Shown here: in pieces, positions 19,694 through 21,861 of the stretch
Layout of the letters: the number at the start of each line of letters is the position of its first letter
How positions within the stretch are numbered: position 1 is the stretch's first letter
From: a virus
Taxonomy: Duplodnaviria > Heunggongvirae > Uroviricota > Caudoviricetes
Direction: 5' to 3' (one strand)
DNA length: 21,861 bases
Virus record (IMG/VR): IMGVR_UViG_2579778633_000005
Coordinates: 1-21,861 of that record
Translations under genes and position numbers: made by a program
Notes under the pieces: model-generated
What the model saw: the letters and a program-made list of their open reading frames with translations, nothing else
Databases searched by the model: none
What the model was told of the DNA's origin: nothing

Positions 19694-19758
19694 TTTATTT
19701 ATTCATATATGAAAACAATGTAACCAATATTCGAATTGAAGAACTGAAAGAACACCAA

Positions 19759-19782
19759 GCCGCCTGATGGCGGTTTTTTATT
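19759..19782 (+). terminator. Intrinsic terminator after the zinc-ribbon gene
   Basis: Stem CCGCC / GGCGG with loop TGAT, followed by TTTTTTATT. Confidence 0.5.
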
Positions 19783-19793
19783 GGAGACAAGAA

Positions 19794-20138
19794 ATGTCAG
19801 ATTTGGCTATGAAGGTTTTGAAATGGCAATCGACTGGCGATGTTGGCATCAGTAGCGCAACTCTTGCCTCAATCGCATGTGGACTGAAAAAGAATATCTA
19901 TGGTCATAGCTTCGGTGCTCCACATGACGCAGCAGACTTTCGGCGATGCGTTGCACTTGTTGAGCAGATTCCAGAAATCAGAGATTCATTCGACAAGGTT
20001 GCAAAGCGCGTTCCGGCATTCAAAGGAATCCTCAACGAATGGGATTCACTCGTTGCTCTGTTGAAGTCTGAAATGAAGACGTACGGGAACAAAGCACCAG
20101 AGACTTACAGAAGAATCAGCGAGCTACGCAAGGATTAA
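19794..20138 (+). CDS. Hypothetical protein (114 aa)
   Basis: Start chosen at ATG 19794, with GGAG 7 nt upstream; the track's ATG at 19767 lies inside the terminator hairpin. No recognised motif. Confidence 0.45.
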   Translation: MSDLAMKVLKWQSTGDVGISSATLASIACGLKKNIYGHSFGAPHDAADFRRCVALVEQIPEIRDSFDKVAKRVPAFKGILNEWDSLVALLKSEMKTYGNKAPETYRRISELRKD

Positions 20139-20226
20139 CCCGCCTCACACTCGATGAGGCATTTTCATTTATCAAGATATCCAGACCTACCATCGGCGCA
20201 TCAATGCGGTTTTTTTATTACCTGAT

Positions 20227-20242
20227 TTGCAGGTTCGATTCC
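20227..20242 (+). repeat. 16-bp copy of argW nucleotides 46-61 (TTGCAGGTTCGATTCC), immediately upstream of the torI RBS
   Basis: Exact 16-mer identity to tRNA positions 1054-1069 of this window. Confidence 0.8.
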
Positions 20243-20261
20243 CTATTCGGAGATAGCACTC

Positions 20262-20462
20262 ATGCAACACGAACTACAGCCTGATTCCCTGGTTGATTTG
20301 AAATTCATCATGGCTGATACTGGCTTCGGTAAAACCTTCATATATGACCGGATTAAGTCCGGAGACCTGCCTAAAGCCAAAGTTATCCACGGGCGAGCAA
20401 GATGGTTATATCGTGACCATTGTGAATTCAAAAATAAGCTCTTAAGCCGCGCCAATGGGTAA
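20262..20462 (+). CDS. torI: Excisionase / recombination directionality factor TorI (66 aa, winged-helix)
   Basis: MQHELQPDSLVDLKFIMADTGFGKTFIYDRIKSGDLPKAKVIHGRARWLYRDHCEFKNKLLSRANG matches K-12 TorI as I recall it; located next to the attR core repeat, RBS GGAG 10 nt upstream. Confidence 0.85.
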   Translation: MQHELQPDSLVDLKFIMADTGFGKTFIYDRIKSGDLPKAKVIHGRARWLYRDHCEFKNKLLSRANG

Positions 20463-20535
20463 AATAGCGGGTAAAATATTTCTCACATCTAAAAAACACC
20501 ATTCTAATCAATCCCCTGCCGCGTCAAGTAGATGT

Positions 20536-20550
20536 CTGCAGGGGACACCA
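20536..20550 (+). repeat. attR core: 15-bp direct repeat of the argW 3' end (CTGCAGGGGACACCA, tRNA nt 61-75)
   Basis: Exact match to 1069-1083; sequence beyond it does not match the attL phage arm, consistent with host DNA. Confidence 0.8.
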
Positions 20551-20991
20551 GATACCCTTCAAACGAAATCTACCTTCACCCCGTAAAAGATGGGTTTGGC
20601 AGCACACTTGCCTTATATCTACTCATTTTTACTGCAACAGGTTGAAATCTCAGCACTGTCAGAAAGCGCTGATGACTAAACAGCCCTGGGCCGGGCGATG
20701 TAACCATCACACAGAATCCTGATAGCGAAATATGGCGTGACTCGATACTTCACTCCGCAATGCATTCCTTGATGAATTCGCAGGACCGTGATACACGGGA
20801 CAGGTCACTGAATGACGACAATGTCCTGGAAATCAGCGAACCGCGCATCTGAAGTACATTTGAGCGACTGTACCAGAACATGAATGAGGCGTTTGGATTA
20901 GGCGATTATTAGCAGGGCTAAGCATTTTACTATTATTATTTTCCGGTTGAGGGATATAGAGCTATCGACAACAACCGGAAAAAGTTTACGT

Positions 20992-21861
20992 CTATATTGC
21001 TGAAGGTACAGGCGTTTCCATAACTATTTGCTCGCGTTTTTTACTCAAGAAGAAAATGCCAAATAGCAACATCAGGCAGACAATACCCGAAATTGCGAAG
21101 AAAACTGTCTGGTAGCCTGCGTGGTCAAAGAGTATCCCAGTCGGCGTTGAAAGCAGCACAATCCCAAGCGAACTGGCAATTTGAAAACCAATCAGAAAGA
21201 TCGTCGACGACAGGCGCTTATCAAAATTTGCCACGCTGTATTTGAAGACGGATATGACACAAAGTGGAACCTCAATAGCATGTAACAGCTTCACTAATGA
21301 AATAATCCAGGGGTTAACGAACAGCGCGCAGGAAAGGATACGCAACGCCATAATCACAACACCGATAAGTAATGCATTTTTTGGCCCTACCCGATTCACA
21401 AAGAAAGGAATAATCGCCATGCATAGCGCTTCGAGTACCACCTGGAATGAGTTGAGATAACCATACAGGCGCGTTCCTACATCGTGTGATTCGAATAAAC
21501 CTGCATAAAAGACAGGAAAAAGTTGTTGATCAAAAATGTTATAGAAAGACCACGTCCCCACAATAAATATGACGAAAACCCAGAAGTTTCGATCCTTGAA
21601 AACTGCGATAAAATCCTCTTTTTTTACCCCTCCCGCATCCGCCGCTACGCACTGGTGATCCTTATCTTTAAAACACATGTTGATCATCATAAATACAGCG
21701 CCAAATAGCGAGACCAACCAGAAGTTGATATGGGGACTGATACTAAAAAATATGCCGGCAAAGAACGCGCCAATAGCATAGCCAAAAGATCCCCAGGCGC
21801 GCGCTGTTCCATATTCGAAATGAAAATTTCGCGCCATTTTTTCGGTGAAGCTGTCAAGCAA
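20992..21861 (-). CDS. cscB: LacY-family oligosaccharide:H+ symporter, sucrose permease CscB-like; 3' portion only, 5' end beyond the window
   Basis: Hydrophobic multi-TM protein; ...LVKLLHAIEVPLCVISVFKYSVANFDKRLSSTIFLIGFQIA... aligns with the LacY C-terminal region and matches my recollection of CscB, whose csc locus maps near argW/dsd in sucrose-positive E. coli. ORF runs to the window edge; the first codon is not a real start. Confidence 0.6.
   Translation of the reverse strand: MLDSFTEKMARNFHFEYGTARAWGSFGYAIGAFFAGIFFSISPHINFWLVSLFGAVFMMINMCFKDKDHQCVAADAGGVKKEDFIAVFKDRNFWVFVIFIVGTWSFYNIFDQQLFPVFYAGLFESHDVGTRLYGYLNSFQVVLEALCMAIIPFFVNRVGPKNALLIGVVIMALRILSCALFVNPWIISLVKLLHAIEVPLCVISVFKYSVANFDKRLSSTIFLIGFQIASSLGIVLLSTPTGILFDHAGYQTVFFAISGIVCLMLLFGIFFLSKKREQIVMETPVPSAI

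Follow-up and report, generated by a model that had tools for sequence, protein, structure and literature searches.

A conserved argW T-loop sequence upstream of the excisionase gene in a P22-like prophage module

Phages and genomic islands that integrate into tRNA genes are said to carry 3' segments of the target tRNA in their attP. The closest described system to the one examined here is the argW recombination module of KplE1 (CPS-53), HK620 and Sf6, for which Panis et al. 2010 (PMC2951348) give the core as CTGCAGGGGACACCAT, report the pentamers GTTCG, GATCG and GTCCG as the experimental definition of TorI sites, and describe TAAA as common to the IntS arm-type sites. In the same paper, IntS and TorI repress intS through operators located in the att sites. 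What keeps the excisionase silent in such prophages is a recognized gap in knowledge: in the authors' proposal, control of excision lies at the gene of the recombination directionality factor (RDF), for which they name no control site.

We analyzed a stretch of 21,861 nucleotides (nt) from the IMG/VR virus record IMGVR_UViG_2579778633_000005, hereafter the window, which contains a ~19.5-kb P22-like prophage inserted in argW and equipped with this published module (PMC2951348). Upstream of its excisionase gene torI (xis) lies a short piece identical to the T-loop region of argW, and we tentatively read the conserved part of that piece, the T-loop box, as a copy of the left half-site of attB that has been maintained and would serve as a cis-acting operator on the xis translation-initiation region. 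Like the tRNA 3' segments reportedly found in other attP (Reiter 1989, Williams 2002), the box is carried by the phage and repeats part of the target tRNA gene exactly. Those segments, however, are contiguous with the crossover and rebuild the tRNA, whereas the box lies 293 base pairs (bp) away, lacks the overlap, rebuilds nothing and is still conserved. Phage-borne tRNA segments being known, what appears to be new here is a second, non-recombining and conserved half-site copy on the ribosome-binding region of the excisionase gene. The accessible texts on the module (PMC2951348, PMC3509656, PMC8787464) do not mention a T-loop copy 5' of torI; the site-mapping papers in JBC (Journal of Biological Chemistry) 2007 and Virology 2010 lie outside that scope and may mention it.

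Conservation of the T-loop box upstream of xis

The features in and around torI are the following.

20227-20242, + strand: proximal 16-mer TTGCAGGTTCGATTCC, identical to argW nt 46-61 (exact match; cross-lineage conservation)
20232-20242, + strand: T-loop box GGTTCGATTCC, with its invariant core GTTCGATTCC at 20233-20242 (nt 52-61)
20249-20252, + strand: torI Shine-Dalgarno (SD) sequence GGAG, 6 nt downstream of the box and 9 nt upstream of the ATG (sequence)
20262-20462, + strand: torI (xis), encoding a 66-aa excisionase (list of open reading frames, ORFs; RefSeq annotation torI)
20536-20550, + strand: attR core CTGCAGGGGACACCA, identical to argW nt 61-75 (exact repeat; phage homology ends at 20550)

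A preliminary description of this DNA had noticed that the proximal and the distal piece together make up 30 contiguous tRNA positions, and this proved exact: both match perfectly, with zero further matching bases on either side, they share nt 61, and 293 bp with torI lie between them. Chance is ruled out for the 16-mer, which, with up to three mismatches allowed, matches only argW and 20227 in the window, two hits being obtained in 0 of 100 dinucleotide-preserving shuffles; the 11-mer GGTTCGATTCC gave the same outcome. Neither the window nor Sf6 holds further copies of the box beyond tRNA genes. The 16-mer does not look like a tRNA gene or pseudogene either, as ARAGORN calls argW as the single tRNA of the window and the T-stem lacks its 3' strand (CCCTA instead of the expected CCTGC). 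A T-arm RNA mimic was also rejected: the T-stem 3' strand is unconserved, and a CAGG partner is found upstream, downstream or not at all depending on the lineage.

The same description had taken the proximal piece to be phage-borne and the distal one to be the attR core, and comparison with relatives agrees on both points. The 16-mer is unchanged in Sf6 and HK620 and present in K-12 KplE1, while homology to free phage genomes ends precisely at 20550, at the end of what is the known KplE1/Sf6/HK620 core. The block 20140-20560 was found in 1414 of 5426 complete E. coli genomes; with the box-carrying module in about a quarter of such genomes, the box offers a precise target for mutation and binding tests.

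Relatives were gathered through the Xis protein, not through the motif, from species-representative genomes, viral contigs, metagenome contigs and isolated phages. Among 112 distinct upstream contexts, 67 carry the box core GTTCGATTCC (50 exactly, 16 with one edit), and in 59 of these 67 the box ends exactly 19 nt before the xis ATG. The box is thus present in ~60% of the sequence-distinct members of this argW-specific xis-attP-int module family, with hosts that include Escherichia/Shigella, Citrobacter, Serratia, Pantoea, Erwinia and Edwardsiella. It also stands 5' of a second excisionase family (MRELRDDSLIDMKF...) and is kept in phiEt88, an Erwinia phage with an Xis that shares just 39% identity with TorI. 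All relatives found in these collections and by the protein search have an argW-type core, and none with the same layout targets another tRNA.

Scored per position, identity to argW is 97-100% over nt 52-61 (83% at nt 60), 77-89% at nt 49-51 and 40% at nt 48, and it falls from 100% at nt 61 to 4% at nt 62, so that the proximal identity stops at nt 61 in almost all lineages. The constrained part is a 10-13-nt T-loop stretch, and the TTG that completes the 16-mer is confined to the E. coli lineage. In a 24-sequence alignment (A2), the box reached a mean column identity of 0.95, compared with 0.51 in the 5' flank and 0.58 in the spacer, and the conserved SD hexamer GGAGAT had 0.85, although the rows of A2 were picked for having the box and the conservation of the box there is inflated. 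The box is a short element on the torI ribosome-binding region conserved about as strongly as the start codon and the Shine-Dalgarno sequence.

The remaining 45 contexts lack the box, and some of them are clean deletions, with GCCTGG|AGAT in place of GCCTGGCTTCCAGGTTCGATTCCCAAACTGGAGAT (L013, L355). Altogether, the box appears to be a conserved yet dispensable element under purifying selection, not a decaying one. The fossil put forward in the preliminary description, if taken as neutral, does not fit a 10-nt core with a mean identity of 0.95 beside adjacent non-coding columns at 0.5-0.65, nor its retention next to excisionases that are 39% identical. That description had also named xis-bearing relatives without the 16-mer as evidence that would speak against it; the 45 boxless contexts are formally of this kind, but they count weakly because some are clearly secondary deletions.

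Two tandem boxes with a 16-nt period were seen 5' of xis in Erwinia phage Midgardsormr38 (L003, 2482-2513) and in two metagenome contigs (L481, L482), the second copy diverging in L482 (GGTTCGGTTCC).

Attachment-site anatomy of the module

The other features of the module and its flank are listed here.

1009-1083, + strand: argW, tRNA-Arg(CCT) (ARAGORN, sequence); its T-arm is nt 48-64 and its left (B-type) half-site GGTTCGATTCC is at 1059-1069
1069-1083, + strand: core copy of attL, CTGCAGGGGACACCA, with T as the next base; exact repeat of 20536-20550 (core defined in PMC2951348)
1091-1178, + strand: the five TorI sites of attL (sequence; pentamers and two-block layout after section 8 of PMC2951348), namely I1 GTTCG at 1091-1095, I2 GTCCG at 1111-1115, I3 GTTCG at 1154-1158, I4 GTTCG at 1164-1168 and I5 GATCG at 1174-1178
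1245-2399, + strand: intS integrase gene (ORF list, NCBIfam integrase domain match, homology to Sf6/HK620 int); its start was placed at the ATG of 1245; in the ORF list it begins at an upstream GTG, 1209
20197-20216, + strand: weak terminator-like hairpin CGCA-TCAA-TGCG with a T-run (sequence)
20457-20465 and 20469-20477, + strand: two P-arm IntS arm-type sites GGGTAAAAT (sequence; TAAA after PMC2951348)
20528-20536, + strand: phage (C-type) left core half-site GTAGATGTC (position-wise comparison of 61 distinct sites)
20537-20543: predicted 7-bp overlap TGCAGGG, followed by the right half-site GACACC at 20544-20549
20995-21861, - strand: flanking non-phage oligosaccharide MFS transporter gene (NCBIfam TIGR00882, 406 bits), which runs off the end of the window

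This layout is that of the KplE1/HK620/Sf6 module. The core copies at 1069-1083 and 20536-20550 are identical (15-16 nt, the 16th base at attR being G here and T in K-12), intS adjoins argW in the same orientation, and torI lies at the opposite end and reads towards attR. The five GTTCG-type TorI sites stand in two blocks, TAAA-type IntS arm sites occur as GGGTAAAA-type repeats at 1200-1244 and 20457-20477, and TorI is 100% identical to K-12 KplE1 TorI, HK620 HkaC and Sf6 gp18. The P-arm IntS repeat is kept in all relatives, and relatives have a terminator at the place equivalent to 20197-20216; homology to the Sf6/HK620 module starts at about 20206, inside the T-run of this hairpin and ~20 bp 5' of the 16-mer. 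The GTTCGC repeats were ruled out as IntS arm sites, since they are TorI sites and the IntS arm sites carry TAAA according to PMC2951348. Where the locus departs from the described module is that the in vitro substrate starts downstream of the T-loop copy: the 135-bp attR that recombines with attL (PMC3509656) has CTCTTAAGCCGCGCCAATGG as its phage-end primer, which corresponds to window 20440-20459, ~200 bp downstream of the 16-mer. The box is therefore unnecessary for excision in vitro, integration not having been part of that assay.

The bases to the left of the attP core follow the consensus TTnGATGT(C/A) across 61 distinct sites, and match the tRNA at nt 53 (70%), 54 (81%), 56 (98%), 57 (83%) and 58 (90%). 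Nt 59-60 are TC in the tRNA but invariably GT in the phage half-site, a difference that brings the left half-site closer to symmetry with the right one. The family consensus GATGTC - TGCAGGG - GACACC thus forms an imperfect inverted repeat around 7 bases. An inverted repeat around a spacer of ~7 bp is the standard core layout of tyrosine recombinases. Because the inverted repeats flank TGCAGGG, we predict that the overlap is nt 62-68 and that the top strand is cleaved at 61|62, which provides a sequence-based prediction for both the IntS overlap and the cleavage position. The distal 15-mer would then consist of the overlap (nt 62-68) plus the right half-site, and is also the tRNA's 3' end.

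These observations also bear on why the two pieces abut. The preliminary description had treated them as complementary halves of one fragment; this does not hold, as attP keeps its own in-register T-loop-like half-site and the module holds nt 53-61 twice, once 5' of xis and once beside the core. The abutment would come from one att-site landmark that bounds both pieces, the predicted 61|62 cleavage, and not from the opening of a single fragment. That the pieces join at nt 61 stood as a family-wide feature, which this landmark would explain without an insertion of torI.

On the half-site view, the box equals the B half-site and has its end at the predicted 61|62, but it lacks a partner half-site and an overlap, and the GAGAT found at 7-nt spacing doubles as part of the Shine-Dalgarno region. 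An attB-identical overlap does not follow the box, since nt 62-67 are matched in 0-7% of contexts (37% at one position). A degenerate full second core, made of the box plus nt 62-76, was rejected: only GGA and one A of the Shine-Dalgarno region align with the tRNA past the box, and the 15 nt downstream of it have no significant similarity to nt 62-76 beyond that GGA. The box is comparable to the lambda-family half-sites (B, B', C, C') and to non-recombining pseudo-att sites in its length of ~10-11 bp, in its B sequence and in its end at the predicted cleavage; unlike them it stands alone without an overlap and conserves more positions than genuine C half-sites, and its binding by IntS is putative. 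We consider the box to be probably integrase-related, by origin or by function.

Possible roles of the box

The reading that we tentatively favor, while giving it somewhat less than even chances, takes the box as a second copy of the left (B-type) core half-site of attB, maintained apart from the first. This copy ends at the predicted 61|62, lies 6-7 nt before the Shine-Dalgarno sequence and 19 nt before the xis start, and would act as a cis-acting operator. It would be read by the recombination proteins of the module itself, that is by TorI and/or by the core-binding part of IntS, and their binding would hold excisionase expression down or limit it by feedback. TorI is a candidate reader in the window: the box contains its recognition pentamer GTTCG (20233-20237) and matches site I1 GTTCGCTTCC (1091-1100) at 9 of 10 positions, from which binding by TorI is predicted. 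Across the family, contexts with a TorI-like Xis recognition helix had the box in 42 cases and lacked it in 16, compared with 25 and 29 for other Xis proteins, counts that are not corrected for phylogeny. The core-binding part of IntS is the other candidate, its specificity being the only one that is constant across the family. An operator of this kind would be in line with the autoregulation of intS by IntS and TorI (Panis et al. 2010, PMC2951348), where protein motifs likewise overlap the expression signals of a recombination gene and GTTCG is shared. The two cases differ in that the intS sites in attL were shown to act, whereas torI has a single candidate site located outside the minimal att site.

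Several observations weigh against this operator reading. Lineages with P'-arm repeats (the presumed RDF sites) of (A/G)TTACC or GAAC type also keep the box, and the Xis recognition helix differs accordingly in these lineages, so that TorI-type recognition cannot explain all of the conservation; a pure TorI operator is weakened by this persistence. The box also conserves nt 55, 59 and 60, which are free in genuine C half-sites, and has no TGCAGG next to it, and the constraint on an integrase half-site is therefore insufficient by itself. Its absence from 45 of the 112 contexts makes it dispensable, and the selection of the A2 rows flatters its conservation. Finally, the cleavage position is a prediction from symmetry, and the operator role is read from sequence, with protein binding and a regulatory effect as its predicted consequences.

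A bolder version of the operator reading, which we regard as unlikely, is that the phage would hold a dismantled attB copy, its T-loop half-site having been set on the xis ribosome-binding site (RBS) as a non-recombining operator that gates excisionase synthesis through the integrase or through an excisionase that reads the T-loop. As a corollary, TorI-type excisionases would recognize argW T-loop DNA at attL and attB, and, if true, TorI at the argW T-loop would give the excisionase a physical means of blocking re-integration.

At attL, a pair of similar direct repeats borders the core: the host T-loop GGTTCGATTCC (1059-1069) on one side and TorI site I1 AGTTCGCTTCC (1090-1100) on the other. 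As the attL substrate in the literature starts within the T-arm, a TorI footprint on the T-loop could have escaped notice.

Two other explanations concern the history of the box and not a role in expression. The preliminary description had assumed an ancestral attP with contiguous nt 46-75, into which the torI cassette was inserted at nt 61, leaving the proximal piece as a fossil and creating the xis-attP-int order. The exact pieces abutting at nt 61 and the family-wide 3' boundary at that position are what such an insertion would leave, and the coincidence of this boundary with the predicted integrase cleavage makes an integrase-mediated joining of an xis-P-arm segment conceivable; an integrase-mediated event at 61|62 is indeed a possible origin of the box. 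We nevertheless find the insertion improbable, given that the box is under apparent purifying selection, that conservation is limited to nt 52-61, that the in-register T-loop half-site left of the core means that nt 53-61 are doubled and not split, and that the sequence past the box does not resume the tRNA. Moreover, the upstream tRNA match runs on to nt 63 and overlaps the core in L011 and L014, and the boxless lineages keep the xis-attP-int order, so that an event at the box does not explain this layout. A history of exchange, in which the box would only mark a junction where int modules are swapped between phages and would have no role in expression or in recombination chemistry, accounts for other facts: the mosaic boundary with Sf6-type phages lies ~20 bp 5' of the box, the Sf6 annotation has a 'bsq2 boundary sequence' at the box region, and a near-identical terminator-box-SD block stands 5' of xis in two families that diverge by >50% in protein, which points to exchange with a breakpoint at the start codon. 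However, 10-13 bases are too short for efficient homologous exchange, the box is unchanged in lineages with quite different flanks, and a linker gives no account of why it should be the T-loop of the target tRNA and stop at nt 61. We judge this explanation to be quite improbable.

The two remaining explanations, like the operator reading, give the box a role in expression. The main rival to the operator reading is an RNA element, in which the box would pair with the RBS in the leader of the xis mRNA (GGUU with AACC, AUUCC with GGAGAU), sequester the Shine-Dalgarno sequence and keep basal translation of the excisionase low. The fixed spacing of the box to the Shine-Dalgarno sequence and to the ATG would follow from such pairing, RNAfold recovers the hairpin in many relatives, 89.8% of the scored cells pair as against 34-61% when the 3' partner is slid, and the common C60-to-T variant (GATTTCC) perfects the inner stem. 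Yet the structure was derived from the same sequences on which it was scored, compensatory changes are absent and RNAalifold gives no consensus structure, the outer stem is missing in the E. coli lineage, the stem is short and weak, with a minimum free energy of about -3 kcal/mol in several relatives, and the invariant unpaired C55 and G56 are left unexplained. The RBS-sequestering hairpin is thus compatible with the sequence but was set aside for want of covariation, and we view it as doubtful. The box region also overlaps a promoter annotated by homology in two phage records: HK620 has a 'promoter, phage integration' label together with a cII protein_bind site in GenBank, Sf6 has 'pI; possible integrase expression promoter', and these features overlap window 20217-20245. 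A CII-dependent pI promoter for integrase expression is nonetheless highly improbable and was rejected. The proposed site is TTGC-N5-TTGC, where the P_RE site of Sf6 has the canonical N6; its first half-site is mutated to TTAC in the window and in K-12, and the repeat is missing from most relatives that keep the box. No conserved -10 is found between the box and the Shine-Dalgarno sequence, a sigma-70 scan of 19700-20700 came back empty, and such a promoter would co-transcribe xis and int. If the box should turn out to be inert, it would be a warning that a 'split tRNA' pattern can come from att-site anatomy without any insertion.

Swapped specificities and neighboring DNA

Direct repeats in the P' arm, the presumed excisionase sites, lie 10-200 nt past the core, and their class goes with the Xis recognition helix (GKTFIY, FTAKYFY, FTDRYFY): the repeats are of TTACC type in L356, L365, L375 and L420, of GTTC type in L399, L417 and L418, and of GAAC type in L409 and L414. 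The IntS arm sites vary as well (GGGTAAA or GGGCATA), and the core is constant throughout. The family thus appears to swap its arm-site and RDF specificities on a fixed target core. On an unrelated contig (L145, 8133-8161), a degenerate stretch resembling a T-arm and acceptor, GCAGGTTCGATTCCCTGACAGGGAGCC, terminates 5 nt ahead of the start codon of a P4-type integrase; it yields no tRNA call, and its GGGAG appears to act as the Shine-Dalgarno sequence.

Within window 19757-20226, the terminator AAGCCGCCTGATGGCGGTTTTTTATTG, which lies directly 5' of the box in Sf6 and HK620, sits at 19757-19783. It is separated from CCTGATTTGCAGG by a segment of ~440 bp, which holds a 123-aa ORF (19767-20138) related to HK022, HK97 and 434 DNA as well as hairpins of its own, and resembles a moron-type insertion with duplicated T-tract junctions on both sides. 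Two small ORFs overlap the module and are probably not genes: one of 70 aa is antisense to torI (20243-20455, - strand), and the other (20455-20595, + strand; hkaB in HK620, gene 17 in Sf6) crosses the attP core and is broken by integration.

Past the attR core (20550-20700), where the window has G and K-12 has T, many E. coli loci share the flank CACCAGATACCCTTC, which resembles the flank 5' of a second integrase gene in L358, ~300 nt past the core. The 'host' DNA beyond 20550, including the sugar-transporter gene, may perhaps be the remnant of another argW island.

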